Source: an uncultured virus (IMG/VR IMGVR_UViG_3300042468_000189)
Lineage: Duplodnaviria > Heunggongvirae > Uroviricota > Caudoviricetes
DNA: 64,000 nt
IMG/VR virus record: IMGVR_UViG_3300042468_000189
Strand: one strand, 5' to 3'
The notes beneath the pieces are model-generated. The model did not search any database. It was given only the letters and a program-made list of their open reading frames with translations, and had not been told where the DNA came from. How positions within the stretch are numbered: position 1 is the stretch's first letter; every line of letters starts with the position of its first letter. The position numbers were made by a program, and so were the translations under genes. Below, piece after piece: positions 374 to 60,981 of this stretch.

Positions 374-616
374 TTACCTCTGCGGATTAAAGCCAAGCCG
401 ACGCATTCCTAACTCGATGAGCATTGCGGCGTCCTCAAGGCGATTTTGACTGCTGCTCATGCCGGTCTGCCATTCGCCGCCTACGCGTTTGCCAACAATA
501 GCCACCGTGACAATCTCTCCAGATTTGGCGTCTTCCAGCCACTGCTCAAGCATGGTTACGGCCTCAGAGTTGTCATGGGTTGTAACTTTGATAAACGGTT
601 TGATGTTGTTTGTCAT
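374..616 (-). CDS. hypothetical protein
   Basis: 80-aa ORF, ATGA-coupled to the upstream gene. Confidence 0.7.
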   Translation of the reverse strand: MTNNIKPFIKVTTHDNSEAVTMLEQWLEDAKSGEIVTVAIVGKRVGGEWQTGMSSSQNRLEDAAMLIELGMRRLGFNPQR

Positions 617-906
617 GTGTTTCCCCTTGCTCGTATGGCTGCGTCTACTTCTGCTTCAGACAAAATGTCCCATCGTTTCTTTTGGTGATTCTGGCAAATT
701 CGGCGATACAGTTTGTCGTCAGACTTCGCTATATCGTCTGCTGTATCGATGTCGTCCAATAACATCCAAAGTCGCAATGATTTCTCACGTTCAGCAGCGG
801 CAACAAGTGCGGCGAAGCGTTCAAACGATTCAAGGTTTGCGCCCATGTATGAGACTGGGTTAAAACCAGCCTCTCGCGCCATGCGGATGATTTCGTCGCG
901 GTTCAT
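613..906 (-). CDS. hypothetical protein, MAREAG paralog family
   Basis: Start reassigned to ATG 906 (MNRDEIIRMAREAG...FAALVAAAERE...AAIRARGNT); 4-bp overlap with upstream gene. Confidence 0.75.
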   Translation of the reverse strand: MNRDEIIRMAREAGFNPVSYMGANLESFERFAALVAAAEREKSLRLWMLLDDIDTADDIAKSDDKLYRRICQNHQKKRWDILSEAEVDAAIRARGNT

Positions 907-1109
907 GCGTTTCCCCTTGCTCGTATGGCGGCGGCGTATGTAGGCCATTCAATCAGTGTGTTTTTGTTCTCACACACCTTCGCACACGCCTCACGCTCGG
1001 CAGCAGCAACAAGGGCAGCAAAACGTGTTACAGAACCTAATGGCTTTTCGTCAGATCCGTAAGCCAATCCCGCCTCCCGTGCCATGCGGATGATGTCTTC
1101 CTTGTTCAT
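903..1109 (-). CDS. hypothetical protein, MAREAG paralog family
   Basis: MNKEDIIRMAREAG...FAALVAAAEREACA...AAIRARGNA. Confidence 0.75.
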   Translation of the reverse strand: MNKEDIIRMAREAGLAYGSDEKPLGSVTRFAALVAAAEREACAKVCENKNTLIEWPTYAAAIRARGNA

Positions 1110-1570
1110 GATTCTTCCCCTTCTTTGTTACTCCATTCTTGCCACCTTGCTGCGATGAGATCTAATAAATGTTTAAGCAGCGATTGATCTGAATCAGATA
1201 AATCATCTCTACCTGCGTACTCAAACAGCAAGTTCCATATAGCTTCGCGCTCATGCTCGGCAACAAGATATGCAAAGTATTCAAGCTGATAAAAAGCATG
1301 AACAACCCCGTTGGAATCAGCAAGCCCTGCTTCTCTAGCCATGCGGATGATGTCTTCTCTATCCGGCGGGTCGGCTTTTATCACGAGGCAATCCGGCCAG
1401 CCGTGAATGCGGTGGTCAACGTGAGCCACCGGCTCTTGCTCTGTCTCCAATGCTTGTCGCAGTGCGGCAATGGCTTCACCGTAGTAATTTTCATCGCCTG
1501 TTTCCCCTAACATCTCTGCGCCTGCATCCTCCAGCACCTCTATCGCTTCTTCAATAGCTTCTTTATCCAT
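1106..1570 (-). CDS. hypothetical mosaic protein ('ALRQAL..EPVA' module plus MAREAG module)
   Basis: 154-aa ORF sharing segments with 1880..2296 and 903..1109. Confidence 0.7.
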   Translation of the reverse strand: MDKEAIEEAIEVLEDAGAEMLGETGDENYYGEAIAALRQALETEQEPVAHVDHRIHGWPDCLVIKADPPDREDIIRMAREAGLADSNGVVHAFYQLEYFAYLVAEHEREAIWNLLFEYAGRDDLSDSDQSLLKHLLDLIAARWQEWSNKEGEES

Positions 1571-1883
1571 GATTCTTCTCCTTTAGCTTGGCTTCAATGG
1601 CACGGGCAAATCCCCATCGATCAAACCACTCTGAATTACTTGCATCAAACTTTTCGGACAGATAACCTAAATCTTGTATCTCCTCATCCGTCAGCCCAAC
1701 CCATTGCTTTGGTGGTGCGGTGTAGAGGGGAACGCCATTTAAGGTCAACGGTGCGTCAAGGTCTTGTACCAGTGGTTTGCGTTGTTCTTTTGATAGCGGA
1801 CCCTCGTAAGCGGGCATTCCGTTGCACCACGCATCAGGCTGACCGTCATCCGCCGGTGTTTTTGCGTTCTTGTTTTCACTCAT
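1563..1883 (-). CDS. hypothetical protein ('PLYTAPP..WVGLTDEE..LKEKN' family)
   Basis: 106-aa ORF in tightly overlapping operon; motifs shared with 1880..2296. Confidence 0.7.
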   Translation of the reverse strand: MSENKNAKTPADDGQPDAWCNGMPAYEGPLSKEQRKPLVQDLDAPLTLNGVPLYTAPPKQWVGLTDEEIQDLGYLSEKFDASNSEWFDRWGFARAIEAKLKEKNHG

Positions 1884-2296
1884 GTGTTCTTCTCCTTAAA
1901 AGCCTGCTCAAGAACCCTTGCTACATCAAGCCAACCACCACCCTCAAGCACATTATCAATTGCTTGCCATACTTCCTGATCTGTCAAACTGACCCATTGC
2001 TTCTTTGGTGGTGCGGTGTAAAGTGGTGTAGATTTGTTGAAGTGTGGGTGAGCTTGTTCCACAAACCGCTGGTCCGTGAATGTCAGGTGCTTTCTGCTGT
2101 CCCACTCATACATCCACGCCACCGGCTCATGTTCATCTTTTACGATTTCATCAACACGTTCTTGTGATGTGTCGTCGGCATTGACAAGTGCTTGGCGCAG
2201 TGCGGTGATGGCCATTTTTCTATGAACCAAACCCAGATGGCTTACCGGATCGCTCTCTAGCGCCTCCAGCGCCATCTGCATAGCTTCTCTGCTCAT
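1880..2296 (-). CDS. hypothetical protein ('EPVAW..PLYTAPP..WVSLTDQE' family)
   Basis: 138-aa ORF, ATGA overlaps on both sides. Confidence 0.7.
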   Translation of the reverse strand: MSREAMQMALEALESDPVSHLGLVHRKMAITALRQALVNADDTSQERVDEIVKDEHEPVAWMYEWDSRKHLTFTDQRFVEQAHPHFNKSTPLYTAPPKKQWVSLTDQEVWQAIDNVLEGGGWLDVARVLEQAFKEKNT

Positions 2297-2580
2297 GATT
2301 TCTCTCTTGTTGCCTTGGCGATGGCAGCGCGGGCATTTGTAAGCATTTCGTCGAGTCCGTTGTCATTGTCATGGCCGAAGTAGCTCACGAAGTCCATTAA
2401 TGCGTTAAGCATGTCGGGCGCGGCGGCGATCAGGCGAGCGTTGGCTTCTGATGTTTCCAGACGCTTGCCGTCCATTGACAACGCGGTCACAAGTTCGCGT
2501 CCGCTGTTGACGTACAAGGAATAGCCGCTTCTGTCGTAGTTCCACGGCCCCGGTGTGTGTTTGATAGCTTCTCTGCTCAT
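2293..2580 (-). CDS. hypothetical phage protein ('HTPGPW...ANARLIAAAP' family)
   Basis: Motifs common in small phage early proteins. Confidence 0.75.
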   Translation of the reverse strand: MSREAIKHTPGPWNYDRSGYSLYVNSGRELVTALSMDGKRLETSEANARLIAAAPDMLNALMDFVSYFGHDNDNGLDEMLTNARAAIAKATREKS

Positions 2581-2837
2581 GATTTCTCTCCTGTTGCTTT
2601 AGCGATGGCTTCATGAGCCTCGCGTTCTATCGTCTTGGCCCAGTGCCCGTTATCTAGCAAGCATATGTTGAGGATCGTGTTGAGTGCCTTCAGCAGATCC
2701 TGATTGACCTCATGCAACCGGCGCAGTTCGGCGGCTGCATCACCGCACAGGCCATTTCGGCTGAACTGTCGATCAAGTTCGTCCAGCGCATCAGCCAGCC
2801 GCAAGGCTTCGGGTTGTTTCACAGCTTCTCTGCTCAT
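2577..2837 (-). CDS. hypothetical phage protein ('QPEALRLAD..AAELRRLHE' family)
   Basis: 86-aa ORF, ATGA overlaps. Confidence 0.7.
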   Translation of the reverse strand: MSREAVKQPEALRLADALDELDRQFSRNGLCGDAAAELRRLHEVNQDLLKALNTILNICLLDNGHWAKTIEREAHEAIAKATGEKS

Positions 2838-3043
2838 CGCTCCCTCTCCCTCAACATGGCGTCTGCAATCATGTAAGCCTGCCTCGCGGTTGCATCAAAA
2901 TAATTCCCCTGCGCCAGTGCTTGCATCGCCTTGGCTGCAAGGTAATCACGCAGGGACATACCTGATTGGATTAGGTGCGAATGTGCGACGGGAAACGCTG
3001 CCCCACCGTCTGTTGGCGTCTTTGCCGTTTTGTTTTCGCTCAT
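2834..3043 (-). CDS. hypothetical phage protein ('GGxAFP..MSLRDYxAAKAM..AYxxADAML' family)
   Basis: Recognisable small-phage-protein motif; paralog of 4412..4630. Confidence 0.75.
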   Translation of the reverse strand: MSENKTAKTPTDGGAAFPVAHSHLIQSGMSLRDYLAAKAMQALAQGNYFDATARQAYMIADAMLRERER

Positions 3044-4077: not shown

Positions 4078-4210
4078 ATTTCTCTTTTATCTCCATGATT
4101 GCTTGAGCAACTAGCTCTTGTGCTTCCCGTACGATGCTGCGTCTACCTCTCACAATACCGACCATGAAGCCGACTAAAAATCCAAAGGCCCAAATCAAAG
4201 TGCTTTCCAT
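4031..4210 (-). CDS. small protein with N-terminal hydrophobic helix (59 aa)
   Basis: Manual translation MESTLIWAFGFLVGFMVGIVRGRRSIVREAQ...; not in ORF track. Confidence 0.55.
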   Translation of the reverse strand: MESTLIWAFGFLVGFMVGIVRGRRSIVREAQELVAQAIMEIKEKYETKKYDERTVHRAS

Positions 4211-4434
4211 CCTTTGACCTCCTCAGTCCAAGACCTTGCCCATAAAGACATAACACTAAGCCTTGCGCCTGCGTCTACCAACTCAATTGTTTTATATACC
4301 GTTCTAGTATGTTTAGTACCAGGGCTAACCCAACGATGCTTCTCGCTATAGTCCGGTAGGTAAGGAACCCCACGCAAATAAAAGACAGGTTGTGTTTCAG
4401 TCTCTGCTACTTTATTTAGATTCATCATCGACAT
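4195..4434 (-). CDS. hypothetical protein
   Basis: 79-aa ORF in operon. Confidence 0.6.
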   Translation of the reverse strand: MSMMNLNKVAETETQPVFYLRGVPYLPDYSEKHRWVSPGTKHTRTVYKTIELVDAGARLSVMSLWARSWTEEVKGWKAL

Positions 4435-4630
4435 GCTTACTTCTCCGTTTGATCATCTCGTCTGCTACTCGATAGGCAAAATCTGCAAATGCTTCTTCTG
4501 GTTTGTACTGCGGCATCTGCCCCCACTTACCTGCGAGGATTCCTGCTATTGCTGACATAGCAAAATCGTCACGCAACTCCGTTAAGAACTGCTTCTCTGC
4601 CCATGCACGTTCTGCTTCAAACTCATCCAT
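4412..4630 (-). CDS. hypothetical phage protein ('LRDxFA..AYxVADxM' family)
   Basis: Strong RBS AGGAGG upstream; paralog of 2834..3043. Confidence 0.75.
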   Translation of the reverse strand: MDEFEAERAWAEKQFLTELRDDFAMSAIAGILAGKWGQMPQYKPEEAFADFAYRVADEMIKRRSKHVDDESK

Positions 4631-4647
4631 ATAACCTCCTATAAATT

Positions 4648-5279
4648 ACCTGCCTAAGTTCGCCCCGCCATACCCCGCCTAACCTGATTACACCGCACCT
4701 GCCTCATCAAAACCCATCACACCTTGTGTTACCTAACGCCACCGTGCCTGCCTGAAAAGCCCGACCATGCCGTGACCGACCTCACTCGCCACACCTGCCA
4801 AAACGAACCGCACCGAACCATACCCAAATGCAACCTACCGAACCGAACCGTGCCTGCCACGCCAAACCGCGTTAAATCACGCCGAACCCAATCCGACCGT
4901 ACCCCGCCCTACCGAGCCTGCCTGATAAGACCTTACATACAACACCTATCCCGACCTCACCTAGCCTGCCGGAAAAAACCCAACCGGTCCTAACCATATC
5001 GCACCGAACCAACCACGCCTGCCCTAACAAACCGCATAAACCAAACCGAATCGAACCTTACCTAGCCTGCCATACCAAGCTTGACCGAATCCCGACTTAT
5101 CAAGCCGCACCGCACCGAACCATGCCTGCCAAATCTAACCTCATGGCAAACTACCGAACCCCACCCCACCTAGCCTGCCAAATTAAACCTCACCTCGCCC
5201 CACCAACCGCGCCACACCCTGCCTGCCTCACCATCCTTACCAAATAAAGCCCTACCCCATCAACCGAACCATGCCTGCC
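4648..5279 (-). repeat. array of 12 units delimited by 13 GGCAGGY motifs, each unit a run of GGY-NN pentamers
   Basis: RCCTGCC on + strand at 4648, 4697, 4746, 4793, 4852, 4916, 4964, 5017, 5065, 5124, 5173, 5221, 5273; spacings 49,49,47,59,64,48,53,48,59,49,48,52. Confidence 0.95.
4648..5279 (-). ncRNA. putative guide-RNA precursor array for the adjacent RAMP/Cas7-like protein
   Basis: Non-coding, co-oriented inside the minus-strand operon, begins at the stop codon of the gene next to the RAMP gene; RNA function is inferred. Confidence 0.65.
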
Positions 5280-5743
5280 TAAACCTTCTCCAGTTTGTTG
5301 CGTAGGACTAAGACTTGGTCAAGCAGTGCTTCCATCTCATCCACCATGTCGAGCGCCTGCGCTACGTTCTTTGCTCTTCGTAACGCACCAACAATGAGTG
5401 CGACCTCGTTGTTGATAACTTCTCTCGACAGATCTTTATCGCTACGTACCTTGGTGAGTGTGGTGTAGCCTTGCTCGTTGCCTTTCTTGCTTGGGTCTCG
5501 CAAGTAAATAGGAGCTTTGATAACGACCTTGTCTGTTGTTATAACTACGCGAACTGAAGCAATCAGATTGCGAGCAGTGTCAACCCAATGCTTGTAAGCT
5601 GCGCTCTCAAGACTCCAGTCAAAGTAAGTATGCAGAGGACTTGATGGGTTCTTAGCATCTGCTACTACGATGTCTGGTGTAAGCGACCCTCCGTGGAGGG
5701 CCGCAATCTCTTCTAACCTCTTAGCGATTGCGGCTCTGTCCAT
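5279..5743 (-). CDS. conserved phage protein, partner of RAMP-like gene
   Basis: 154 aa with 'LTPDIVVADAKNPSSPLHTYFDW..AAYKHWVDTARNLI' motif; RBS TAAGGA; lies between RAMP gene and array. Confidence 0.8.
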   Translation of the reverse strand: MDRAAIAKRLEEIAALHGGSLTPDIVVADAKNPSSPLHTYFDWSLESAAYKHWVDTARNLIASVRVVITTDKVVIKAPIYLRDPSKKGNEQGYTTLTKVRSDKDLSREVINNEVALIVGALRRAKNVAQALDMVDEMEALLDQVLVLRNKLEKV

Positions 5744-5752
5744 GTTTTATCC

Positions 5753-6520
5753 TTAAGCGGCTTTAAGACCACGACGCTTGGTCTCTGCGTTGAACCATGA
5801 AAGCAACTCTTCAGTGTCATCGTCATAAGCCTCTGGGTTTTCCAGTGCTTCGAGTTGCGCTGCTTTACCACCTGTCTTAATTACTTCTAAGAACTCAGGA
5901 TCATTGGCGTCAACAATCTTCCAACGACCATAGTTGCCCGAACCTTTCTCAGGTCTCCAATCACCAACGCCCATCGTAATACCTGCTGTAGCGAAGAGAT
6001 TAGAGATAACCGTATGGTTCAGAACCGGACGCACATAAGTAATATCAACCTTGCATGCCCACTTCGGAACGATGGCACGGGTACGTACATCAGGGGTTTT
6101 GTTAATGTCTGCCGACCGAGTAATACTTGAGAAGATCTTAGGTACACCAAACAACTCAAGACGCTCGTTCTCAACCGTAGTCAGGCGACCTATCTGAGAC
6201 TTCTTAGCTCCAGGCATATCGAGTGCCGCGTTGCGTAGTGCACCCTTGAACTGTGTAGCCAATACAGATAACTCTGTTGCATGATCGCCCTGCGGCATGC
6301 GGTACGGTGAGGACCGATACTCAACCAACGGATCGTGCTTCATTGATCCTGCTTTCTCAGCAGCAGTCTTGCGACCGGAAGGAAGAAGCAGTTGTTGCCA
6401 TGCCTTCTCTGGCATACGGTTGCAGATCATCGGTGTAGTTCCTAGTACGTGGAACGTAACCGTTTGGGTTTCCATCTCAACGATTTGAATCGTATCTTCT
6501 GTTACTTTCTTTGTAGCCAT
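5753..6520 (-). CDS. stand-alone RAMP/Cas7-like RNA-binding protein
   Basis: N-terminal strand 'FHVLGTTPMI', helix 'VLATQFKGALRNAA' (cf. RAMP IPGSSLKGALR), C-terminal G-rich loop 'GVGDWRPEKGSGNYGRW'. Confidence 0.8.
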   Translation of the reverse strand: MATKKVTEDTIQIVEMETQTVTFHVLGTTPMICNRMPEKAWQQLLLPSGRKTAAEKAGSMKHDPLVEYRSSPYRMPQGDHATELSVLATQFKGALRNAALDMPGAKKSQIGRLTTVENERLELFGVPKIFSSITRSADINKTPDVRTRAIVPKWACKVDITYVRPVLNHTVISNLFATAGITMGVGDWRPEKGSGNYGRWKIVDANDPEFLEVIKTGGKAAQLEALENPEAYDDDTEELLSWFNAETKRRGLKAA

Positions 6521-6533
6521 GTTGTCCTCGTAA

Positions 6534-6761
6534 TTAAATTAAATCGTTTTCACTTGCCTTAGCCGCTAGTGATTTGTAGAACGCCCACTTGCGTAAGTAG
6601 TACGGGTCTTCGCTTGGGGGTGTCCACGTAGGAGCAGGGTGCGGCATGTCCCTGTTCTTATCTTCGGGAACTGGTTGCTTCTTCCACACGGCAATAACAT
6701 CAGAGCCAGACTTCCATAGCCTGATACATCGCTCCATGTTTTGTAGTTGTTCTTCTGTCAT
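6534..6761 (-). CDS. hypothetical protein
   Basis: 75-aa ORF in operon. Confidence 0.6.
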   Translation of the reverse strand: MTEEQLQNMERCIRLWKSGSDVIAVWKKQPVPEDKNRDMPHPAPTWTPPSEDPYYLRKWAFYKSLAAKASENDLI

Positions 6762-6964
6762 TAGTAAGGAGCCTCCTCTATGTCAGATAGATCCTGCTTG
6801 TCTTGCTTTGTACGTATTAACTTAACGTCACGCTTTGTGCAGTAAACCCAACGTGGGAACGGCCAAGGTGTTTGCGGAATGAGGACGACTAAGTCATCGC
6901 CTTTGACTGCATGCACCTTGCCTTCTTCTTTGTTTGGAAACCGCACTCGGTCTCCCTCGCGCAC
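6761..6964 (-). CDS. hypothetical protein (possible small SH3/KOW-like barrel)
   Basis: 'EGDRVRF....GKV' pattern; GTG start. Confidence 0.55.
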   Translation of the reverse strand: MREGDRVRFPNKEEGKVHAVKGDDLVVLIPQTPWPFPRWVYCTKRDVKLIRTKQDKQDLSDIEEAPY

Positions 6965-6966
6965 AG

Positions 6967-7284
6967 CTACTCCATCACGCGAGGGGTTAGCATCTCAAGA
7001 TACTTCTGCCTGTAGTGCCGGAACTTCTCAGCATCGGCAGGATCTTTAAGACCTTGGCGCATAGCGTACTTAATCATGTTGCCCTTGAGGAACCCCATGA
7101 ACTCGTCATAGGTAAGCAATGTCTCCATCGCTTCCCAAGGTTGTACACCCATTGTTTTATAGTGAGTACCACCAACCTGTCTTGTGTCTGCGCTTGGAGG
7201 TTTGCTGCTTATTGCAGTGACAGTGTACTCAACCTTGTTGCGTGACCCAGGGGGACGACCCCTGCGCTTCTTTGTAGTAACCAT
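6967..7284 (-). CDS. DUF3310 (SaV-like) protein with N-terminal AT-hook
   Basis: 'QVGGTHY....QPWE...GFLKGN.IKY..R.G.K' DUF3310 pattern; KRRGRPP AT-hook. Confidence 0.8.
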   Translation of the reverse strand: MVTTKKRRGRPPGSRNKVEYTVTAISSKPPSADTRQVGGTHYKTMGVQPWEAMETLLTYDEFMGFLKGNMIKYAMRQGLKDPADAEKFRHYRQKYLEMLTPRVME

Positions 7285-7286
7285 AA

Positions 7287-8261
7287 CTATTCCTCAGTAT
7301 GTTGTTGCTCTGCATCTTGGAAGATGTAGAAGCATTCTTGATTTGCTTTGAAACCTACACCACCTACGAAGTTATTAGGTTCGATCAGCTTCAACATGCC
7401 AAGCTTGGATCGTATATCGTATGGTAGTGTTTGATGAGTGTAGCTCACGTTATTGACATTGTCAACAACTATATATGTATCGCCACGTTGAATTACAAGT
7501 TTACCTCCCTCAAGTTTTTCCACTCCAATTTTTGTATCGTCCATCATAGCCGCTGCCCTCCCATACTCCACACAGGGTGCGCCAAGCTTGTCGTACCAAT
7601 CGAACTGCATAAACATATCGGGTCTGGCTAGCAACGTATCTATAAGTGTGCTGCGTATATTCCACTGCGCCTCATTCATCTTGCGATGAGCATCGACATG
7701 CAGGTCTTTGACAGTCTTGGTGATTGCCTCCCTTGCATGCTTGATTATCTCCGGCAGGTTCCTTGTACCAAACTCCTTAAACACAGTGCGTACAGCTTTG
7801 TCCATACTGGACGTAGTCTTGTGGTCCCTCACGGTTAGCTTGTCGTTGATGCGATGGTTGTAGATCTTGTACACGTCTGCTCTTTGTGACCTACCACCTA
7901 TGTAGTCAACGGTATGAGCAAGCTTGCCGAGTTCTTCTGTGCCTTCGCTTACAACAAACTCAACAATAAAGCCACTGTATATATAATGACTCGCCTCAAA
8001 CCTCCACAGCGGACGCTTAGCGGCAAGCTCCTCAAGCAACTGCAACATGCCATGCCTGATACCCAAGGTTACTTGCTTAGAGGTATCTCTCTTCTTGTTG
8101 GCATTGACCAGATCAGCCTCAAGCTTTGGTGTTCTAAATACTATGTTTTTGTGCACAGGGTGCACGTCAGGTAATGCGAAGCTGCTATCAACCTTGGTCT
8201 CGATCCTACCCTCCTCTCGTGAGGGGATGGGCATAAGGGTTACGTTATTGTATGTAGGCAT
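7287..8261 (-). CDS. hypothetical protein
   Basis: 324-aa ORF with GAGGAG RBS. Confidence 0.75.
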   Translation of the reverse strand: MPTYNNVTLMPIPSREEGRIETKVDSSFALPDVHPVHKNIVFRTPKLEADLVNANKKRDTSKQVTLGIRHGMLQLLEELAAKRPLWRFEASHYIYSGFIVEFVVSEGTEELGKLAHTVDYIGGRSQRADVYKIYNHRINDKLTVRDHKTTSSMDKAVRTVFKEFGTRNLPEIIKHAREAITKTVKDLHVDAHRKMNEAQWNIRSTLIDTLLARPDMFMQFDWYDKLGAPCVEYGRAAAMMDDTKIGVEKLEGGKLVIQRGDTYIVVDNVNNVSYTHQTLPYDIRSKLGMLKLIEPNNFVGGVGFKANQECFYIFQDAEQQHTEE

Positions 8262-8525: not shown

Positions 8526-9773
8526 TTACTTATCAGTTTTGATGTATACAGCCGACCCAAAAGCCGGAACCGCAGTCTCGTTATCCGCAATCGCCCATAA
8601 GACAGGTGATACCCAATCTCCCGCCGGACCGCCCCAATCAGCACCAACGCAACCGTCGGTAAAGACAACGCATAACTCAGCATTGATATGGTTCTCCTTC
8701 ATGTACTTAGCGATACAGCTAGGTATTGTGCCGCCCCCTCCCTTGGGTCGGGTCGATGTTGTTAGCATGTCAAGATTAGACTCTGTGTACTGCTCGTGGT
8801 TGGCGATGCGAGTGTCCCAATAGAGCAGGTGCAGGTTGCTTGGTCGTACCTCCTCACAGATAGACTTGATCTCAGAGAGGAATGTGCTTAGCTCCTTATC
8901 ACCAATCGAACCTGATGTATCGACAGCAACCACCAAGTCCTTCATCTGCTCACCGATCAGCACAGGCAGATACAGATCGAACTCCAACATGCGCCGGTTG
9001 ATCTTGCGCCAAGATGTTTTGGTCTTGCTTGGGCATGCTTGCTTGATGAACTCTCGCAACTGCTCGCGCCAATCTACTTGTGGCATGAGCACCTCTTGCA
9101 GGGTGCGATACATACCCCCCGCCCCCTTGCCTTTATTCTTCTTGTTATGTGCAATGATGCCTTGCCTGATGGCAGTGTCTATCTGCTCTTCGATCTTCTT
9201 CTTATCATCATCAGACATTCCCTCAGCTTCTCCCCACATATGCTCATCGAGGGATTGCTCACCCTGACCTTGCGCTTGGCCTTGCTGTTGCTGTTGTTGC
9301 TTCTGCTTGCGTAGCAGGTCATAGATCTGCTTGCTGTTAAGACCCTTGTACTTAGCATCGAAGAGTGCGATCTTGGGCAGTGCGATAGTCTTGCCTTGGG
9401 GGTCTGCTTCCCACAGCAGATAGTTGATGAGGTAGTCGCATGCTTTGTTAGCACACTCAGCGTCTTGCTTGTATAGCTTGTTGTAAATCTTGAGATGCTT
9501 GAATGCCTTGTGCAGCATCTCGTGCAGCCTGACGAAGGCTAGCTCCTTGTCAGTAAGAGTCTCGATGAAGCTGAGCGAATACTCTTCATCGATGCCGTTG
9601 GTTCTTGCTGTGAAGTTCTTATCGAGTATCTTGATTGTGCCCATCGATAAGAAGCCAGACCACAATGCAAACCTATCGTCACGCATGATTGAGATGTTGA
9701 TCTTAGCCATGCGTCTGTTCTGTGTAGCCAGACGTTGCTCGACTGTCTGTGGTTGTAGTGCTTGTGCAAACAT
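8526..9773 (-). CDS. putative metallopeptidase (HExxH) fused to vWA domain (DUF2201-like)
   Basis: HEMLH zinc motif, MIDAS DTSGS, GGGGT and FTDG motifs; start at ATG 9773 behind AGGAGG. Confidence 0.85.
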   Translation of the reverse strand: MFAQALQPQTVEQRLATQNRRMAKINISIMRDDRFALWSGFLSMGTIKILDKNFTARTNGIDEEYSLSFIETLTDKELAFVRLHEMLHKAFKHLKIYNKLYKQDAECANKACDYLINYLLWEADPQGKTIALPKIALFDAKYKGLNSKQIYDLLRKQKQQQQQQGQAQGQGEQSLDEHMWGEAEGMSDDDKKKIEEQIDTAIRQGIIAHNKKNKGKGAGGMYRTLQEVLMPQVDWREQLREFIKQACPSKTKTSWRKINRRMLEFDLYLPVLIGEQMKDLVVAVDTSGSIGDKELSTFLSEIKSICEEVRPSNLHLLYWDTRIANHEQYTESNLDMLTTSTRPKGGGGTIPSCIAKYMKENHINAELCVVFTDGCVGADWGGPAGDWVSPVLWAIADNETAVPAFGSAVYIKTDK

Positions 9774-9781
9774 ATAACCTC

Positions 9782-10648
9782 CTATATCCAATCGTTAACG
9801 GCAAGGATGTTGTCTACCTTCTCCTTGATCTCCTTGCGTACTGATGCACTCTCCTTTATGTCATCGATGCGTACCCCTGACAGCGCACGTTCTAAGTCTT
9901 GCCTTGCCTGCTCTAGTTTTGCATCTCCTGTTATGTTGAATGCAGTAAGCAGTCCGCATAGCTCGTGTGCATTAGTGAGCATGCTCTCGTGATAGCGCTT
10001 CTTCTTATCTTCTTGTTCTTGTGGCGAGTCAGTCATGCGTGATGAGATATGAATAAGTGTCTCGTGCAACCTACCCCACGCATCCTTCATCGCATCGCTA
10101 ACCCTGCGGTTAGCCTCGGCTTCGTAGTTAGTAGCTAGCTCTTGGATAACCTCGTTGTGCGTATCGAGGATGAAGTGTCCGCTCTGTGGCACAGGGGTGA
10201 AGGCATATCTGAAGCTGAACTTGCGAGCAACCTCGCTCACGTCTGGATACTCTGAGCGATTGAAGAAGTTGCCCAGCTTGAATGCTGCTACTGATACGAG
10301 GTTAGGATAAGCATCGAGGAATGTCTTGACGAGTGCTGTTGTGTTTGCCTCCATCGTATTAAGTTGCGACTTGTAGTTGAAGAAGTTAGCCATCGGCAAG
10401 AGCCTTGGGCCTTTCTCTGCCCACGGCAGGGTCTGCGCTATGTGCCAGATGCGAACCTTCGCAATGTAGTCGTTGATGTTCTTGAGTAGGGTCGTACCTG
10501 CCATGAGGTTCTTGTTGACGCGAGCCGCATCGCTCTCGGTTGCGTTGTTATCTGCGACAACCTTGGCAGATTGTTGTTTGTCTAGTTTGTATGCAGTCCA
10601 TGCTGAGATGTTAAGTTCGACAAGCACTGCGTTATTTAAGATAGTCAT
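9782..10648 (-). CDS. conserved phage protein (DUF3150-like, tentative)
   Basis: 288 aa between AAA ATPase and vWA genes; family call from memory of such modules. Confidence 0.6.
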   Translation of the reverse strand: MTILNNAVLVELNISAWTAYKLDKQQSAKVVADNNATESDAARVNKNLMAGTTLLKNINDYIAKVRIWHIAQTLPWAEKGPRLLPMANFFNYKSQLNTMEANTTALVKTFLDAYPNLVSVAAFKLGNFFNRSEYPDVSEVARKFSFRYAFTPVPQSGHFILDTHNEVIQELATNYEAEANRRVSDAMKDAWGRLHETLIHISSRMTDSPQEQEDKKKRYHESMLTNAHELCGLLTAFNITGDAKLEQARQDLERALSGVRIDDIKESASVRKEIKEKVDNILAVNDWI

Positions 10649-10665: not shown

Positions 10666-11751
10666 TTAGAATAAGTCTTGGTTGTTAGCGCACCAGTCGC
10701 GGAACCGTGCGTTGCTGAATGCGATAGCTTGTTTGATTGGATCTTTGGCGATGCTCAACACGAGGCATGCCATCCAGTCAGGATTCAACCGCTCGGCATA
10801 GGTCATGTAAGCGTCGATATTGTCCTTAGCCAGTGTGTCTATGAAGGCATACACAAGTATCCCCTGCGCTCCTGACTCGGCAGGCACTCGGCATCCCTTG
10901 GGGTCGTTGAGTATGGATTCCCGTGTTGGCAGTTGATCTGAGAACTGCAAGTAAGTCATGAATGAATCAGCGAATGCAGCGCCCGCTGTACCTGCAAGTG
11001 CTACGTGTACTGCGTTCTGTGTAAGCCGCTTGCGGACGTGCACGATGTTGCTTGACCTTGAGAGTGTGCGAGGCGAGACGCACGACTGATTGGGCTTGCG
11101 TGGGTTGTATGGGTAGGGGTTGCTCTCCTGCCCAGGGTCTCGATATGAAGCTAGACAATCGGGATGGGCATATACCCACGAGCGTATCTCTGGTGCAATG
11201 TTGTTAGCACTAGCCCAAGGCAACCACGTATCGGCAGAGGGCTTGCGTATCTCACACTCGGTTACCCTCTGGAGTGAGTGCGCTTTGAGATTGTCACCGA
11301 CTCCATCGGTGGACAGGTTGCCCGTGAGGAATACGATGCTTCCCTTCTTGAGGAACTTATCTGCCATGCGAGGCTTGTTCTCTTCGAGTAGTGGATGCAG
11401 CATGTTACGCACAGGTTCTGCACCCTTGCTGAACTCGTCAAGGCATATGACTACCTTCTTATCAGTATGCAGTTTGAACGTGCCGTTGGGGAAGTATTCG
11501 AGGATGCGCTCCTCGCGGTTGGGGATCGGTGCTGCTGTGTCGCCAAGGTCTAGGCTCGCACAGTCTACGTAAACGAAATCATATTCATCTGCGGGTAGCA
11601 GGGGGTGAGACTCTAAGAGGTTAAGCACAGACGACTTGCCGATCCCAGGCTCGCCACGTAGCAGGAACCGATTGTCTGGAATGTTGGCGATAAGGTCTGC
11701 TGCCTCTTGCAGTGAGATCTCGCGCTGCTGTTTGACTTGCTGTTCTTGCAT
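10666..11751 (-). CDS. AAA+ ATPase (MoxR/dynein-related AAA_5-like)
   Basis: Walker A GEPGIGKS, Walker B VICLDE, sensor TGN, 'SPR' motif. Confidence 0.88.
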   Translation of the reverse strand: MQEQQVKQQREISLQEAADLIANIPDNRFLLRGEPGIGKSSVLNLLESHPLLPADEYDFVYVDCASLDLGDTAAPIPNREERILEYFPNGTFKLHTDKKVVICLDEFSKGAEPVRNMLHPLLEENKPRMADKFLKKGSIVFLTGNLSTDGVGDNLKAHSLQRVTECEIRKPSADTWLPWASANNIAPEIRSWVYAHPDCLASYRDPGQESNPYPYNPRKPNQSCVSPRTLSRSSNIVHVRKRLTQNAVHVALAGTAGAAFADSFMTYLQFSDQLPTRESILNDPKGCRVPAESGAQGILVYAFIDTLAKDNIDAYMTYAERLNPDWMACLVLSIAKDPIKQAIAFSNARFRDWCANNQDLF

Positions 11752-27939: not shown

Positions 27940-28094
27940 AAGATTACGAGGATTGGCAGGTGCAGAAAGAAATACTAAAGGAGTACCTGCAAGTCATGGT
28001 GGCTCTTGAAGATTGGCACGGTGTAGCTGACGTAGCGATGGACCTAAGAGAATTGGAAGCAAGACATGACCACGAGCGGCTCAACCGACTTTAA
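27936..28094 (+). CDS. small hypothetical protein (52 aa)
   Basis: Manual translation MKDYEDWQVQKEILKEYLQVMVALEDWHGVADVAMDLRELE...; ATGA-coupled. Confidence 0.55.
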   Translation: MKDYEDWQVQKEILKEYLQVMVALEDWHGVADVAMDLRELEARHDHERLNRL

Positions 28095-28830
28095 TCTTGA
28101 GTTTACTGACATAGCCGAAGAAGCCTATGAGAGGGCTGGTCGGGAGATGCGCTCTGGTTACGACCTGCGTACTGCACGTCGTTCGATGAATCTACTAACC
28201 ATTGAGTGGGCAAATCGTGGCATCAATATGTGGACGATTGAGCAGGGCACGAAGAATTTGGTACAGGGCACTGCGACGTACGATTTACCGAACGACACCA
28301 TTGACTTGCTTGAACACGTTATAAGGACGGGTGCAGGTAATGCCTCAACGCAAGCTGACCTTACACTTACAAGGATTAGTGTCTCCACCTACGCCACAAT
28401 CCCAAACAAGCTGGCTCAAGCAAGACCGATACAGATTTACATCAGCAGGAACTCTGGAGCCACGTACCCTGCAACAAGTGCATACGACCCCGGACAAACC
28501 GCCTACCCACAATTCACAGTTTGGCCTGTCCCTGACCAAGGCACTGAAGCCTCGCCGTACTATCAAGTAGTTTATTGGCGGATGCGTCGCATACAAAATG
28601 CTGGGGATGGTATTCAAACTCCTGATATGCCGTTTAGGTTTCTCCCCTGTATCACCGCAGGATTAGCTTATTACATAGCTCAAAAGATTCCTGAAGGACA
28701 AGAACGATTATTAGCTCTTAAAGCTGCTTATGAAGAGCAGTGGAATTTTGCAGCGGGTGAAGATCGTGAGAAAGCTGCGGTTCGTTTTGTACCGCGCCGG
28801 ATGTATTTAGGTAATACTGGGAGCTTCTAA
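28066..28830 (+). CDS. putative head-tail adaptor/connector protein
   Basis: 254 aa; 'IAEEAYERAG..TARRSMNLL..EWANRG' and 'LAYYIA.K' patterns. Confidence 0.6.
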   Translation: MTTSGSTDFNLEFTDIAEEAYERAGREMRSGYDLRTARRSMNLLTIEWANRGINMWTIEQGTKNLVQGTATYDLPNDTIDLLEHVIRTGAGNASTQADLTLTRISVSTYATIPNKLAQARPIQIYISRNSGATYPATSAYDPGQTAYPQFTVWPVPDQGTEASPYYQVVYWRMRRIQNAGDGIQTPDMPFRFLPCITAGLAYYIAQKIPEGQERLLALKAAYEEQWNFAAGEDREKAAVRFVPRRMYLGNTGSF

Positions 28831-29258
28831 TGCCCAATCAGTTTGCCTCTGGTAAATACGCTATCGCGCAGTGCGATAGGTGTAACTTCAGATACAAATT
28901 GAAGCAGCTAAAGTCGCTTGTTATTAAGACTAAGAACGTCAATATTCTTGTCTGCCCTGAGTGTTGGGAACCTGATCAGCCGCAATTGCAACTTGGTATG
29001 TATCCTGTGTATGACCCACAGGCTATTCGTAATCCTCGTGTTGACTCTAACTCTTATTATCAATCGGGGCTAAATGGTTTACAGATTGAACCTGTAAATG
29101 ACGACTCAAGCCAAGATGAAAATGGGGTTCCCTCTGGGGGCAGTCGGGTTATACAATGGGGGTGGTATCCAATTGGTGGTTCCAGATCTTTTGATGCTGC
29201 TTTGACCCCCAACGATCTTGTCCCTAGAGGACTTGTTAATTCAGTCACCGTATCGTAG
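28830..29258 (+). CDS. zinc-binding hypothetical virion-module protein
   Basis: CDRC...CPEC. Confidence 0.7.
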   Translation: MPNQFASGKYAIAQCDRCNFRYKLKQLKSLVIKTKNVNILVCPECWEPDQPQLQLGMYPVYDPQAIRNPRVDSNSYYQSGLNGLQIEPVNDDSSQDENGVPSGGSRVIQWGWYPIGGSRSFDAALTPNDLVPRGLVNSVTVS

Positions 29259-48185: not shown

Positions 48186-51100
48186 ATGCCGACACTGCTG
48201 GAGATCCTGCAAGACCCCAACTACATCAACGCAAATCCTGCTACAAAAAAAGCTATCTTTGATAAGTACGCTCCGCAGGATTCTAATTATGTAGATGCTA
48301 ATGACGCTACCAAAGCTGCCATACGGCAGCGTTTTGGGTTAAGCACTGCTGCTCCTGCTGTCAAAAAACAATACGGTGTACCCTTAGAAGTTCCTCCTGA
48401 AGATAAGGAAGGGTTTGTCCCCGCTGTTAAGGCAGGGTATGAATCACTCAAAGGATCGCTTGCGCTTGCTGCTGGTAAAGCAGGACTAATGGATCTTAAA
48501 GAAGCCGAGCGTTATCAAGCAGAGCGCGAAGCAGAAGCCCAGAGGGTATTCACACCTACTGAAAAGGGTTGGTCTGAAGCGCCTTTTCAAAAATTTAAAG
48601 AGACTTTGGGTGGTTCATTACCTTATATGGCTGCACCTATTGCTGCGGCTGCGGGTGCCGCTGCGCTTCCTGTTACGGGTACTGCCGCTACATTAGCCAC
48701 TTTGGGCGCAACTGGTTTAGTGTCTGCTACGCAGTTCACAGGTACTAATCTTGCGAGACAGCTTGACGAAGTAAAGCGCACTAATCCTAATGCGGGGCTT
48801 GAACAAACAAGTTTAGGTAGCGCCGTTGCCGCTGCCATACCACAGACTGCGCTAGATATTGTTGGTATGAAAGCTATCCCACTAGTGCGTGGGTTGTTTA
48901 AGTCTGTTGGTAAAGAAGTCACTGAACAACAAGCTAAGAACTTTGCCGAGCAAGGGTTCCGTCGCACACTTGCTGATTACTCTTTAGCTACAGGCAAAGC
49001 TGCGGGTGTTGAAGGTGCTACTGAGACAGGGCAACAATTTTTAGAGCGTCTACAAGCTGGGTTAAACATTGCAGATGCTGATGCTCGTAAAGAGTACGTT
49101 GAAAGTTTTATTGGTGGTGCTGTTCTTGGTGGCGCACTTTCTCCTGCTGGTCGATACATTGAGCGACGCAGGGAAGCAAAGACTCCCGAAGAACGTTCTG
49201 CAATTGATGAAGCACAAGCCAAGATTGATGCAGAGCAGCTAGCAAAGCAGAAAGAAGATCTTCAAGGGAAAGCCGCTGCGGTAAATGTAGAAGACATTGC
49301 TGCTAGGACGCAAGAGCTTGCTAAAGAACCTGCTACTGCTGGTGACGTATTAACTGCTGCTACTCAAGCAGCACAAGAAAAGTTAGCTGAGCAAGCAACT
49401 CCAGAACAAAAAGTAGCGGAAGCTGCTACTAAAGTTGATGCGCTTACTTCTAGGATTAATGAACTTACTGACGAATACATAGCTGCTGGAGATTCCCCTG
49501 ATCAAGCCAAAATCAAAGCCGCTGCTCAGGCTGCGGAAGAGGAACGAAACGACCAAGAGGCTGACCAAGCTCTATCCGAACTTGCAGAAATTCAAGCCGA
49601 AGCCGGAAAGGAGGCAGAAGATGCTGCTAAAGCTATCGAACAAGGAGGTGGAGAAAGCGTTCCAATTCCTAGCCGACCCGACGGAGGAGTACCCACCGGA
49701 GGAGTTGAGCCACCTGTCGCCGGTGGAGTGGAACGCCCTGCACGTCCTGCTGAACCAACTGTACGAGGAGAGGAAGTACCATCCGGTGCAGTAGAAGAAA
49801 AAACTCAACCCCCAAAGGAAATCCCCAGTGTCACTACGCCCACTGAAACCAAGCAAGCAAAAGAAGAAGGAGCAGCAGCGCCTGCTGAAGGAACAAAAGT
49901 GGCAAAACTTGCCACAGCAGCCAAACCTGCCGGTGTACCAAAAGCAGCAGCCCCTCAAGTAACAATTATTAATCAGTATCCTGGCAAGAATACAAACGGC
50001 CAAAATACAAAAGATCTTGTGCTCTCAAACGGAGAGACCGTTACTATTACGAATGTAGGTGAAGGGCGTAAGCCTAAGTGGGTTAGGCGTGTAAATGGTG
50101 AGGAAGAAGTTCTTGGCACTAACTTAAAAGATGCGTTTCTAAAAGTTAGATCTGATGCTGTGCCTACTGGCCCTGCGCCTAAACGTGGTCCGAAACCTAA
50201 GCTGACTGAGGAAGAAAAAGAAGCTCGTGCTGTTGAGTCGGGGATGCGTACTGAGGAACTTAACGCAATTGAAAATATTATTCTTTCTACTAAGAAGCTA
50301 AAAGGTTCTGACCGCCCCGGCTTGGCTACGATGTTGGATCTGTTCCTTGGCCCAAGACCCGAATCTAAAGCTTCCATGCAGCAGTACCACGATACTTTTA
50401 TGAAAGGTATTGAGGGTCAGTTTGCAAACATTGGTAATCCAGAAACTAGAACAGAAACTCTTAACGACTATATAACTAAGAGAGTGCTCCCTGTTTTGGA
50501 AGAGCTGTACCGCCTTGGTACTGATCCAAGGTATGCAAACACTCGCATCCGTGATCTCGCTATGAGTAATTTTGAGCGTGGTCCTAGCAATATTAAAAAG
50601 GGCATCATAGCGCGAGCTGAACGCCGTAAAGAAGAGACTAAGCCTGTAGAGCAAACAGAAGCTGTTAGCGAAGAACCCATAGTCACACCCAAGGCTCCCA
50701 CTGGCCCTGCACCTGTCGTTACTACTAAGGTAAAGAAGCGTACGTTCGTAAAACCAGAAGGTGGTCCTGGTGCTCTTGCTCAGGCAGATATTTCAGAAAC
50801 GGAATTACAGTCAACCAGCCCTGCCTTAAATCCAAAGATCGAAGCCGGTGCGCCTAAGACAGGTAAAGACGCTGCCCAGATTATTGCAAAAGATCCTAAG
50901 AGCAATAAGTTTGAACGCACCTTGGCACAAAAATTGGTGTCTGCGTTAGGGAATATAAAATTCATAATTGTTTCTAATAAGTCTAAGCAAGGGCTTATTG
51001 ATAATTTCAAGAAGCAAAAAGCTAGGGGGTTGTTCATACCCACTAACGATATGGTCGTTGTAGCAGGGAGCGATCTGTCAGGGGTAGGGCAAGGCGTAAA

Positions 51101-54100
51101 CAACCAGACTGTTTTGCACGAGCTACTACATGCGGGGACTGCGGTAAAAATCTACGAAGGTGAGCAGATTGTAAAAGCTGACCCTAGAAGCACAGACCCA
51201 AGGGCGCTTGCGTATCGTAAATTAGTACGGTTAATGGCTGCTGCACGGGACGCAGCCGATGATGCGGATAAGCTTCCTGATGGTCATCCATACAAAGAAT
51301 TTGTAAAAAGCTTAAATCAAAAGTTCACCAAAGGTAAAGCTCTAACCAATGTGTATGAGTTTTTAACCTACGGTATGACTGATGGGGACTTTCAGCAGTT
51401 CTTAAGCACAGTGCAGTTTGGCAAAACGCAAAGCGTCATGAGCACTTTTGTAGCTACGATTAGACAGCTACTTGGGCTTAGTAAAAACGATGAGTCTGCG
51501 CTTGCTAACCTTATTGAAGTAACAGACACGCTCTTGTCACTGGAGCCTTCCGTTGCCGACGCGCAGGCTAAAATAGAAATACTCTCCCAGAAAAAAGACG
51601 TACAGACCGCTGCCGATGTGCAAGTCAAATATGCTAACGACGTAATCAATACGCCTCGTAGCCAAGGCCCATCTGTATCTGCGCTGAACCAAGCTATAGC
51701 TAACGGTATGGATCTATCTAGTCAGGCAGAGCTTGCTGGTGCTATTGCAGAAGGTGCTATGTCTGGTGCTAGAAAACATATTCTTGGTGCGTTTACTCCT
51801 AGCCAACTTGCAAAACTTGTTAAAGACAAAATCCCTGCGCTTACTCGTGTGGTCGATCTTGGTCGGAAGTTCAACGCTAAGCGCCAGCAGTACGTCGATG
51901 AGATGAAAGATGTTATGAAGCCGTGGCTTAAGCTTCAACGCAACGACCGTGAACAAAGTCAGTTGCTTGCCACCATCATGCACCTCTCTACAGTTAACGG
52001 TATAGACCCAAGCATCCCCGGTAAAGATCGTCTTGCATCCACGCCGCAGTCAGATACCTTGGATGATCTGTGGGAAAAGCTTGGCGAACCGGGGCGCAAG
52101 ATTTATATCGATGTACGTGATTACTACGCTAAGCAATATGAAACGTATAAAGATCTTTTGAACAAACGTATTGAAATGATGGGGATCTCCGATGAGGAGA
52201 AAACCAAGTTCATGGATCTGCTCAAGAAACAATTTGAGTCAGACAAAGTAGCTAAGCCTTACTTCCCTCTTATGAGATATGGAGAGAACTGGTTGCGTGT
52301 CGGCAAAGGCAAGGACATGGAGTTTTATATGTTTGAGTCTGCCTCAGAGCGCAACCGCTTCGCCATCCGTAGAGCTAAGGAGATGGGCAAGCCGCTGAAG
52401 GATTTGTACGCCGACGGTACGCTCAAGCGTGGTGACCAGCTTAAGAATATGATGGAAGAAAGCTTTGCTGATACGACGAAGCTAAAAGAAGTTCTTGCTG
52501 CTGTAGACAAGTTAGGCATCGACACTGATAAGGCATCGATCAAGGACGAGATCTATCAGATGTATCTGCTCACGCTGCCAGAGAAGAGCTTCCGCAAACA
52601 GTTTATTCATCGTAAAAACACAGCAGGTTTTAGCGCAGATGCCCTACGGAACTTTGGCACTGCGGGTTTCCGTATGTCCAATCAACTTGCCAAGATGGAG
52701 TACCAACCCCAGATCGTCAACACACTTGACGAAGCAAGAGAGTCTATCAAGGATGACCCTGACGCATCTAAGTATCGTCCTTATATCGAAGAAGTAGCAG
52801 GCGACTTTGACGCTGCTGTTAATCCTAAGAACGAAAACTCTATCCTGAACTTTGCAGCCAACGGACTATCGACGCTCAACTTCTTCTACTACATGAGTTC
52901 GATCTCGTCTGCTCTGACGAACATGACTTCGCTGCCTGTGTTTGGTTATCCCACACTGCTTGCTGAGTATGGCAAGACTCCCGGCGGCGCAAAGGATGTG
53001 CACAAAGAGCTTGTGCGGTTCATGAATGTCTACAAGGAAGTTGGGTTCCGACGCAAGGTTAATGGTAAGACTGAATATGTTATGCCTTCCATACGCAATG
53101 CGTTGACCAATGCTGATGAGATTAAGGCTTACGATGAGTTTGCGGCTGACAACCTTTTCTCATTCAACCGCTCGATGGATTTGCTCAATATCGTCAAGTC
53201 TCCTTCTCAGGAAGCTACTAACCCTAACATTTTGAAAGTGCCTGTTCAGGCTGCAACCGATGCTGTCTCTACGTTGTTCTCCATGACGGAACAACTACCC
53301 CGCGAGATGATGGCTATGGCTGCTTATCGCTTAGGACGCAGTCAAGGTTTGTCGCATGATGAAGCTACTAAAAAAGCTTTGGATCTGACGCATGATGCGA
53401 TGTACGACTACTCCATGTTTGATACACCCAGATACTTCCGTGGGCCGGTTGGCAGAACCATATTCCAGTTCAAGAAATTTTCACAGAACACGGCGTTCTA
53501 TCTCACGACTAATTTCTTGCAAATGTTTAAAGGTGCAGATCCTACGATTAGGAAGCAAGCTGCAACGCGCTTCTTCGGCACACTAGGTATGACAGGTATG
53601 TTTGCAGGTCTGACGGGTATGCCGTTGTACACCGTGATGTCTACCGTTGCCGAGAAAGTATTAAGTGCATTTGGTGATGATGACGATGACGAAGACAGTG
53701 CAGCTTTCCAGATACGCAAGTACGGATTTGATTTGTGGTTTAAGAAGTGGCTGTCCGAAAACTTTGGCGCAAATGTAGCAACCTACGTCGCTATGGGTCC
53801 GGTCACTGGGCTAACAGGTGCAGACTTCAACTCGCGGGTCAAACTTAACGATCTATTCTTCCAAGATTGGGAGTTTAAAGGGTTGCTCGGCCCAAGCTTC
53901 GGTATGTTTGAGAATGCCCAACGTGCGTACGACAGATTCAAAGAAGGGCAAACCGAGAGGGCTATCGAGACCATGATGCCTGCGTTCATCAGGCAACCGC
54001 TGAAAGCGTATCGCTTTAGCGAAGAAGGAGTAAAGACTCCAAAAGGCTACGAGGTTGTAGCGCAAGAAGATTTGAACTGGATGGACATAGCCATGCAGAG

Positions 54101-60687: not shown

Positions 60688-60981
60688 CTAGTCGTTACGC
60701 TTTATTGTGTGGTTGCTGTTGCGACTGAATGATCGGTTGGCACTTGCGGATGTGATGCGTAGGTTTTTCTTGCTGTTGCCACCGCCCCTCGTGATCGGGC
60801 GTTTATGGTCTATGTCTTTACCCTCGCGCACATCGGCTTTACCGTTGCCGTTAGCGTCTTTACCTTTGCGATCAATCAGATCCCTTGCTCTCTCGCGCAC
60901 CCTGCGCTCGTCTTTCTCTCCTCGTGCTAGTTGTTGTTGATATTCTTTTTTGTACGGTCTAGGTTTGTTAACATAAGGCAT
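60688..60981 (-). CDS. small HNH-like protein
   Basis: Start ATG 60981 MPYVNKPRPYKKEY; 'DIDHKRP..GGGN...NLR...N'. Confidence 0.75.
   Translation of the reverse strand: MPYVNKPRPYKKEYQQQLARGEKDERRVRERARDLIDRKGKDANGNGKADVREGKDIDHKRPITRGGGNSKKNLRITSASANRSFSRNSNHTIKRND

Follow-up and report, generated by a model that had tools for sequence, protein, structure and literature searches.

VIPR (Viral Interference Programmable Repeat) is a CRISPR-related, RNA-guided DNA silencer that was described in 2026 and of which types I to VII exist (10.64898/2026.04.26.720920). The Vipr protein of Escherichia phage SUSP1, the only Vipr tested, binds double-stranded DNA (dsDNA) and silences from either strand (10.64898/2026.04.26.720920), and in cryo-electron microscopy its residues H17, R138, D177, W178, and R179 hold the GGY bases (10.64898/2026.04.26.720927). 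Here, we describe a vipr locus in a 64,000-nt stretch of DNA (hereafter, the window) from an uncultured freshwater virus of the Caudoviricetes (IMG/VR record IMGVR_UViG_3300042468_000189). We consider it very probable (about 0.88) that this locus is a VIPR system of an uncultured aquatic tailed phage with a staggered guide array, a reading that draws on its observed layout and on sequence and modeling evidence and whose RNA steps would follow by analogy with published systems. VIPR is an already known kind, and the locus is a new instance of it, not a new class; a preliminary description of the same DNA, which likened the locus to VIPR, had entered this very caveat, and it holds.

The module lies on the minus strand and consists of vipr (6520..5753; 255 aa), a vap-like accessory gene directly 3' of it (5743..5279; 154 aa), and an array of 632 nt (5279..4648). 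The two open reading frames (ORFs) are separated by 9 nt, and the array opens with a GGCAGGC whose first G, at 5279, is also the final base of the 154-aa gene's TAG stop codon. The last GGCAGG begins at 4654 and is followed by the AGGAGG and the ATG of the next gene (4630..4412), with 8 nt between the end of the closing GGCAGGT and that AGGAGG. In all these respects, from the coordinates of the two genes and the array to the overlap with the stop codon and the end just before a ribosome-binding site, the locus is as the preliminary description had drawn it. A search of the coding strand from 4200 to 7300 revealed neither a sigma-70-like promoter nor an intrinsic terminator, which places the array inside a long, leftward-running operon made up of small genes. 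Those on either side of the module (6534-6761 and 4412-4630) are kept only in the close phage lineage, so that the module itself is made up of vipr, the accessory gene, and the array.

The 255-aa protein had no match in Pfam. In PHROGs, it falls in phrog_4652 (5.9e-13), with residues 17 to 202 on profile positions 2 to 189 of 194, and SUSP1 Vipr matches the same family (1.4e-96). BLASTP related the two proteins directly (2e-5) across the C-terminal third, over the G-loop, where GVGDWRP is common to both, and hhalign paired the family of the window protein (alignment A1) with SUSP1 Vipr at a probability of 96.9% (E 1.6e-10). Judging from these comparisons and from the predicted structure discussed below, the protein is a homologue of the characterized SUSP1 Vipr and a minimal RAMP protein. 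The family is large: a word-indexed search returned 1899 clusters at E ≤ 1e-3, and an exhaustive search returned 1850 cluster representatives at E ≤ 1e-3 and 354 at E ≤ 1e-30, all of them unnamed. Proteins that are 27 to 30% identical to the window Vipr are recorded as "hypothetical proteins" in the Gordonia phages ODay, Ecliptus, Pipp, and UmaThurman and in 25 Mycobacterium phage records.

An AlphaFold2 model built from 71 homologues (pLDDT 93.6, pTM 0.87) places a single-RRM RAMP core at residues ~14 to 206, followed by three extra helices (residues 207 to 255) that form a C-terminal extension absent from SUSP1 Vipr. Foldseek returned 68 matches in the PDB at E ≤ 1e-3 (best E 5e-6; query-normalized TM-scores 0.32 to 0.44), and among the matches listed, all are Cas7-type RAMPs (Csm, Cmr, type VII, and Cas7-11). 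VIA, a structure aligner independent of Foldseek, aligned 150 residues with 9g9a_D, a subunit of the Enterococcus italicus Csm-crRNA complex, at Z 9.3 and a root-mean-square deviation of 4.5 Å; eight of its nine matches at Z ≥ 8 were listed, all of them CRISPR RAMPs, and residues 14 to 213 were covered. The copy of the PDB that was searched held no sequence relative of Vipr and no solved Vipr structure, so the fold match comes from CRISPR RAMPs only. The preliminary description had read three RAMP/Cas7 motifs from the sequence and had proposed a comparison of the predicted structure with Cas7, Csm3, and Cmr4. The comparison indicates a RAMP fold that matches Csm3, Cmr4, and Cas7-11, and the three motifs are present, lying in the model on strand 1 and its exit (G27 to I32), on helix 88-101, and in the loop 183-199, respectively. 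This G-loop, between helix 169-182 and strand 200-203, contains G184-V-G-D187-W188-R189-P.

The residues that hold the GGY bases in SUSP1 have counterparts in the window protein. R138 of SUSP1 aligns to R148, which is invariant in the 71 homologues and to which the role of the thumb arginine was assigned by this alignment. Likewise, D177, W178, and R179 align to D187, W188, and R189; across the same homologues, R189 never varies, and the conservation of D187 is at least 90%. The counterpart of H17 is N34, and among 13 aligned sequences this column has N six times, H six times, and E once.

The array is G/T-rich (638 nt from 4648 to 5285, with G 277, T 183, A 93, and C 85) and periodic. Between 4649 and 5279, CCTGCC (the minus-strand GGCAGG) is found 14 times, versus 11 times in the other ~63 kb, and successive GGCAGG marks are 47 to 64 nt apart. 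The autocorrelation of GG at a lag of 5 nt is 60, compared with 21.9 ± 4.9 in 500 shuffles (z 7.8), and at a lag of 10 nt z is 6.5. Runs of at least five GGYNN repeats occur nine times in the 64-kb window, all within 4650 to 5204 on the minus strand, against a mean of 0.1 in 20 shuffles. A VIPR array calls for at least 4 YNNGG repeats in tandem, with GGY fixed and NN variable, and the tract has them. Cutting at GGCAGG in the window and 38 viral relatives yielded 290 units of 35 to 90 nt, 209 of them unique, and the length of 137 of the 209 unique units follows 5n+4 (44, 49, 54, 59, 64 nt, and so on), where 20% would be expected (chi-square p 9e-61). In the logo of 89 in-register units from the close clade, GGCA is followed by pentamers in which the first position is G in 79 to 99%, the second is G in 62 to 99%, and the third is Y in >90% (mostly T), with the two N positions close to uniform, and these pentamers reach the last base before the next GGCA. 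Therefore, a unit consists of one 4-nt repeat and 8 to 12 pentamers, with no separate tail.

Read in this way, the window array contains 12 units, numbered here from the vipr side, all on the minus strand, and ends with the closing GGCAGGT. Six of the 12 are in the 5n+4 register: unit 3 (5131..5179; 49 nt, 9 repeats), unit 4 (5072..5130; 59 nt, 11 repeats), unit 8 (4859..4922; 64 nt, 12 repeats), unit 9 (4800..4858; 59 nt, 11 repeats), unit 11 (4704..4752; 49 nt, 9 repeats), and unit 12 (4655..4703; 49 nt, 9 repeats). The others are unit 1 (5228..5279), unit 2 (5180..5227), unit 5 (5024..5071), unit 6 (4971..5023), unit 7 (4923..4970), and unit 10 (4753..4799); variants of unit 5 are found in 6 relatives and variants of unit 7 in 8.

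The pairing of gene and array is not peculiar to the window. We assembled 111 loci, 39 from a scan of IMG/VR (46 to 100% protein identity) and 72 from a scan of one genome per species; many of the latter lie in Alphaproteobacteria, Paraburkholderia, and diverse metagenome-assembled genomes. An array, defined as a region with GG periodicity at lag 5 that shares the strand of vipr and lies no more than 1.5 kb from it, was present in 91 of the 111 loci, down to <30% protein identity (33/38 full-length and 0/1 partial viral loci; 46/56 full-length and 12/16 partial genomic loci). Among the 20 loci that lack an array by this definition, 7 have <900 nt of downstream sequence, and L024, L026, and L027 carry GGCAGG-delimited units with a degenerate G[GA]Y that fall below the threshold. 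Over 784 kb, 109 periodic regions lie on the vipr strand versus 6 on the opposite strand. The adjacency in homologues that the preliminary description had suggested looking for is thus found, and the resemblance to VIPR that it proposed is borne out by the homology to SUSP1 Vipr, the RAMP fold, the GGY/NN grammar, and the co-occurrence of gene and array. Arrangements vary within the family. Periodic arrays flank vipr on both sides in L031, L038, L039, L062, L064, L067, L069, and L072, as in SUSP1, whereas that of the window is only downstream. In L037 (46% identity), a periodic region of ~2.5 kb follows vipr (5300-7860), with 18 units of 35 to 90 nt and nonperiodic interruptions.

Comparison of close phages shows that whole units are gained and lost as discrete cassettes, which makes the unit an evolving module. 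The window's array is also present in L002, L004, and L006. Other phages with a 97 to 100% identical Vipr have 8 to 19 units, only some of which are common with the window; these keep the window's order, and insertions and losses involve whole units. In L003, for instance, where Vipr is 100% identical, 9 of the 19 units are common with the window. In phages with a 91% identical Vipr, none of the 9 to 12 units is common with the window at ≥ 85% identity. Likewise, one metatranscriptome contig lacks exactly 52 nt at unit 1, which is the length of that unit. Across 55 pairs of near-identical in-register units, which are not independent of each other, differences per position amount to 8.9% at G, 7.3% at Y, and 4.3% at N. 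The lower divergence of NN within a guide lineage, as seen in these sequences, fits a role of NN as the letters that bear specificity.

The 154-aa accessory protein falls in phrog_15946 (2.4e-14), and a homologue of its gene lies directly 3' of vipr in 37/38 full-length viral loci and 19/56 full-length genomic loci. H38 and W43 are invariant in 37 homologues (alignment A3). Its AlphaFold2 model (pLDDT 89.2, pTM 0.49) predicts a largely separate pair of parts, a helical domain that includes a small sheet at the N terminus and a helical hairpin (97-154) at the C terminus. Pfam gave only single weak matches over the 37 homologues, Foldseek gave no match at E ≤ 1e-3, the best VIA match (Z 6.9) covered only the generic helical hairpin 97-154, and the Atlas returned only viral hypothetical clusters. 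A "TrmB-like regulator" label carried by one homologue in one source could not be confirmed. A prediction of the Vipr-Vap complex ended in "no answer" (score 0.00), which counts neither way. In SUSP1, vap1 is needed in natural infection (10.64898/2026.10.15.759431), but it belongs to a different family from the accessory gene of the window.

Targets were sought on both strands under a one-base-skip rule, with in-register units decoded as guides. The 6 in-register guides of the window, compared with the window and 38 related loci, gave 1 match of at least 80% (15/18, in L014) and no self-target; skip-3 matches of the window guides were the arrays themselves. The 89 guides of the close clade had 7 matches of at least 80% in the whole window, versus 9.25 ± 3.2 for shuffled guides. 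In IMG/VR, the first 8 dinucleotides of unit 8 occurred at 16 loci, about the number estimated for chance, with a best extension of 20/24; a comparison with shuffled nulls, made for 7 of the 16, showed no convergence of other guides on those loci. Units 4 and 9, each scanned by its first 9 dinucleotides, gave 1 and 2 IMG/VR loci, respectively, with extensions of 1/4, 1/4, and 0/4. When metagenomes were scanned with the first 10 dinucleotides of unit 8, 1 locus (21/24) emerged, where a rough estimate predicts ~1 chance match; it lies inside an ORF judged amidohydrolase-like by eye, and the skip does not fall on the wobble position. When 133 guides were compared with the 111 loci, 15 matches reached at least 85%, versus 2 to 12 in four shuffles. 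One guide of L037 matches vipr of both L037 and L038 at 16/18 read bases, a result for which the all-against-all null allows chance. Guides of 8 to 12 repeats carry 32 to 48 bits, and therefore single matches in such collections are expected by chance. Convergence of several guides on one element was not seen across the target searches. As for RNA, four metatranscriptome runs from four studies were analyzed as assembled contigs. All four cover vipr and vap; the whole array is covered only in run X3, while X1 has no coverage over the array and X2 almost none.

How such a locus would work can be sketched from the published mechanism. The preliminary description had the array transcribed with the operon, cut into ~50-65-nt RNAs, and coated by the RAMP protein, steps that we infer by homology; transcription would be part of the leftward operon. 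Each pentamer would be bound by one Vipr protomer, its GGY held by the R148 thumb together with D187, W188, and R189 and its NN displayed. The 16 to 24 displayed bases of a unit would then pair with dsDNA, one target base being skipped after every two, and the resulting R-loop may block transcription of a rival mobile element, presumably with assistance from the accessory protein. At each GGCA, the slip would break the register of the filament and so mark the end of one guide and the start of the next. More tentatively, and with odds that we put below even by a clear distance, the guides might be defined by the protein with no dedicated nuclease. In this extension, the base missing from GGCA would end each Vipr filament, and host RNases would trim the unprotected junctions of a polycistronic phage mRNA that also delivers the downstream genes; repertoires would be renewed by whole-unit gain and loss between near-identical phages, with selection keeping NN and letting GGY decay.

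Several points weigh against the assignment of the locus to VIPR. No natural target, whether among the competing phages or the host genes that the preliminary description had suggested, was identified in the searches of the window, the related loci, IMG/VR, and metagenomes, all results being at chance level. The assembled RNA contigs neither show nor exclude transcription and reveal no RNA ends, and according to the VIPR report, small-RNA sequencing confirmed only ribozyme-interspersed arrays and single-vrRNA systems, not staggered arrays (10.64898/2026.04.26.720920). Six of the 12 window units (units 1, 2, 5, 6, 7, and 10, with 52, 48, 48, 53, 48, and 47 nt) are off register, with internal slips of 1 to 2 nt, and if every protomer strictly took five bases, whatever follows such a slip within its unit would be read out of place. 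The window units are also without the conserved structured 3' tail of the tested type II vrRNAs; therefore, steps that depend on this tail are not transferable to the window locus. Finally, the accessory protein has no BLASTP similarity to SUSP1 vap1, a member of phrog_5926, and neither its sequence nor its fold pointed to a function in Pfam, Foldseek, VIA, or the Atlas.

These points have to be set against what other explanations can offer. Conceivably, the array remains uncut, with one or a few long RNAs carrying side-by-side Vipr filaments of ~10 protomers as a multi-guide particle in which GGCA only resets the register. Several observations would suit this arrangement: no Rfam family was found in or near it, so there is no hammerhead ribozyme; its RNA has no hairpin repeats and folds no better than shuffles (z -1.21); PADLOC found no Cas6-like gene in the window; the coding strand has no promoter- or terminator-like site; and in each unit the run of pentamers stops only at the final base. 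We nevertheless regard an uncut array as improbable, since the legend of fig. S18 describes the vrRNAs of staggered arrays as individually processed with abutting ends (10.64898/2026.04.26.720920) and since whole units come and go as cassettes among close relatives, although this is no proof of cutting. Alternatively, Vipr and its guides might act on RNA, namely on rival or host transcripts, as type III Cas7 backbones do, rather than on dsDNA. The nearest solved folds are indeed those of the RNA-targeting Csm3, Cmr4, and Cas7-11, but the dsDNA binding and either-strand silencing of SUSP1 Vipr, whose GGY-holding residues the window protein keeps, make this a very unlikely reading. Slightly less likely still, to our minds, is that the G/T-rich tract has its function at the DNA level, such as that of protein-binding repeats, a G-quadruplex-prone segment, or a recombination hot spot, with the adjacent RAMP gene being incidental, or that the locus is a decaying remnant. 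Slips in half of the units and the lack of a target in our searches could be taken in this sense, but the association with vipr is strand specific in 91 of 111 loci and persists to <30% protein identity, the combination of a fixed GGY and a free NN agrees with the RNA grammar that has been published, and guide lineages conserve their NN positions. In addition, the two ORFs are intact, and key residues are invariant in 71 homologues.

The surroundings of the locus are those of a tailed phage. The window holds most of a phage genome, including genes for terminase, portal, major head protein, a probable virion protein of 2080 aa, primase-helicase, and DNA polymerase. The nearest cultured terminases, at 46 to 58% identity, are those of an aquatic gammaproteobacterial phage and of Pelagibacter and Planktothrix phages, and no near-identical phage record was found in INPHARED. 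The 2080-aa ORF (48186-54428, plus strand) has matches to DarB-like antirestriction families and weaker ones to families of virion RNA polymerase; its product is probably an ejected virion protein. Upstream of the VIPR module, the same leftward block contains a 421-aa ORF (8526-9791, minus strand) that has a poly-Q/G linker and falls in phrog_1314, a family labeled HNH endonuclease, as well as a 361-aa ATPase (10666-11751, minus strand) of phrog_1297. On the 3' side of the array, tandem families of small paralogous genes occupy 374-3043 on the minus strand. The ORFs at 613-948, 903-1109, and 1106-1570 have the motif "IIRMAREAG...FAALVAAAEREA" in common, those at 1880-2296, 2293-2580, and 2577-2837 begin with MSREA, and those at 1563-1883 and 2834-3043 carry MSENK.AKTP at the N terminus.

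The locus adds a well-formed member, from an uncultured aquatic phage lineage, to the VIPR family described in 2026, and it leaves general knowledge of this kind of system unchanged. Near-identical phages with different guide sets constitute a natural data set on guide turnover. Furthermore, the staggered, tail-less layout is the one without experimentally shown RNA processing, so that the compact 1.9-kb locus is a convenient test case.

Among known systems, TIGR-Tas resembles the window locus in having a non-CRISPR array of short tandem guide units beside an effector gene but differs in its 18-nt period, its effector fold, and the lack of a GGY/NN code (10.64898/2026.10.21.760802). The likeness to class 1 CRISPR-Cas lies in the protein. 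Cas7, Csm3, and Cmr4 have the RRM core, G-rich loop, and thumb of the window Vipr, as seen in structural matches such as 9g9a_D, 6ae2_B, and 6ifn (best Z 9.3 and 8.5; Foldseek E 5e-6). Polymerization on a guide RNA with a fixed period has been published for class 1 CRISPR backbones as well as for VIPR and, by analogy, may apply to the window, but the period is 6 nt with 5 read in the former and 5 nt with 2 read in VIPR. The window has no CRISPR repeats or spacers and no Cas5, Cas6, Cas10, Cas1, or Cas2, and its Vipr matches no PADLOC Cas model at E ≤ 1e-3 and is 9 to 16% identical to its structural matches. In agreement with the preliminary description, Tandem Repeats Finder found no CRISPR-like array in the window (it misses the guide array because the units are too unlike each other), and PADLOC found none of cas1, cas2, cas3, cas5, cas6, and cas10 among 79 ORFs. 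Its only cas hit was a Cas4-like PD-(D/E)xK exonuclease (60968-61663, minus strand; PADLOC Cas4 1.3e-09; phrog_69 exonuclease) between a helicase and a DNA polymerase gene of the replication module, which is an ordinary phage replication or recombination nuclease located 55 kb from the VIPR locus. Class 1 CRISPR-Cas was rejected for the window because of the missing repeat-spacer array, the missing cas set, and the absence of a Cas-model match of the protein.

The type II VIPR of SUSP1 is much closer. In its locus (KT454805.2), vipr (29061..28474; 195 aa) is followed by vap1 (28471..28031; 146 aa), with vrRNAs on both sides. In common with the window, it has the order vipr, accessory gene, and downstream guides on one strand, a phrog_4652 Vipr with a GVGDWRP G-loop and a thumb arginine, and GGT-rich pentamer guides. 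They also differ. With 255 aa, the window Vipr is the longer one, through 49 aa of helical extension at the C terminus and ~17 additional residues at the N terminus, and the two proteins are 24% identical over the only stretch that BLASTP can align (68 columns) and 21% identical in the MAFFT alignment A4. SUSP1 has four vrRNAs of ~100 nt with 9 to 16 repeats, each with a conserved pseudoknot tail of ~40 nt and one of them upstream, whereas the window has 12 tail-less units of 8 to 12 repeats, all downstream. The accessory proteins (phrog_5926 and phrog_15946) are unrelated by BLASTP. Lacking both the ~40-nt 3' tail and vap1, the window locus was not assigned to the type II VIPR of the SUSP1/P. 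fulva clade. The closest match is the staggered VIPR. Compared by the text and legend of the VIPR report only (10.64898/2026.04.26.720920), it shows no difference in layout from the window: like the window locus, it combines a phage-borne vipr, an accessory gene, and GGY/NN repeats without cas genes, and its guides likewise run head to tail with a one-base offset between neighbors, which in the window takes the form of 5n+4 units delimited by GGCA.

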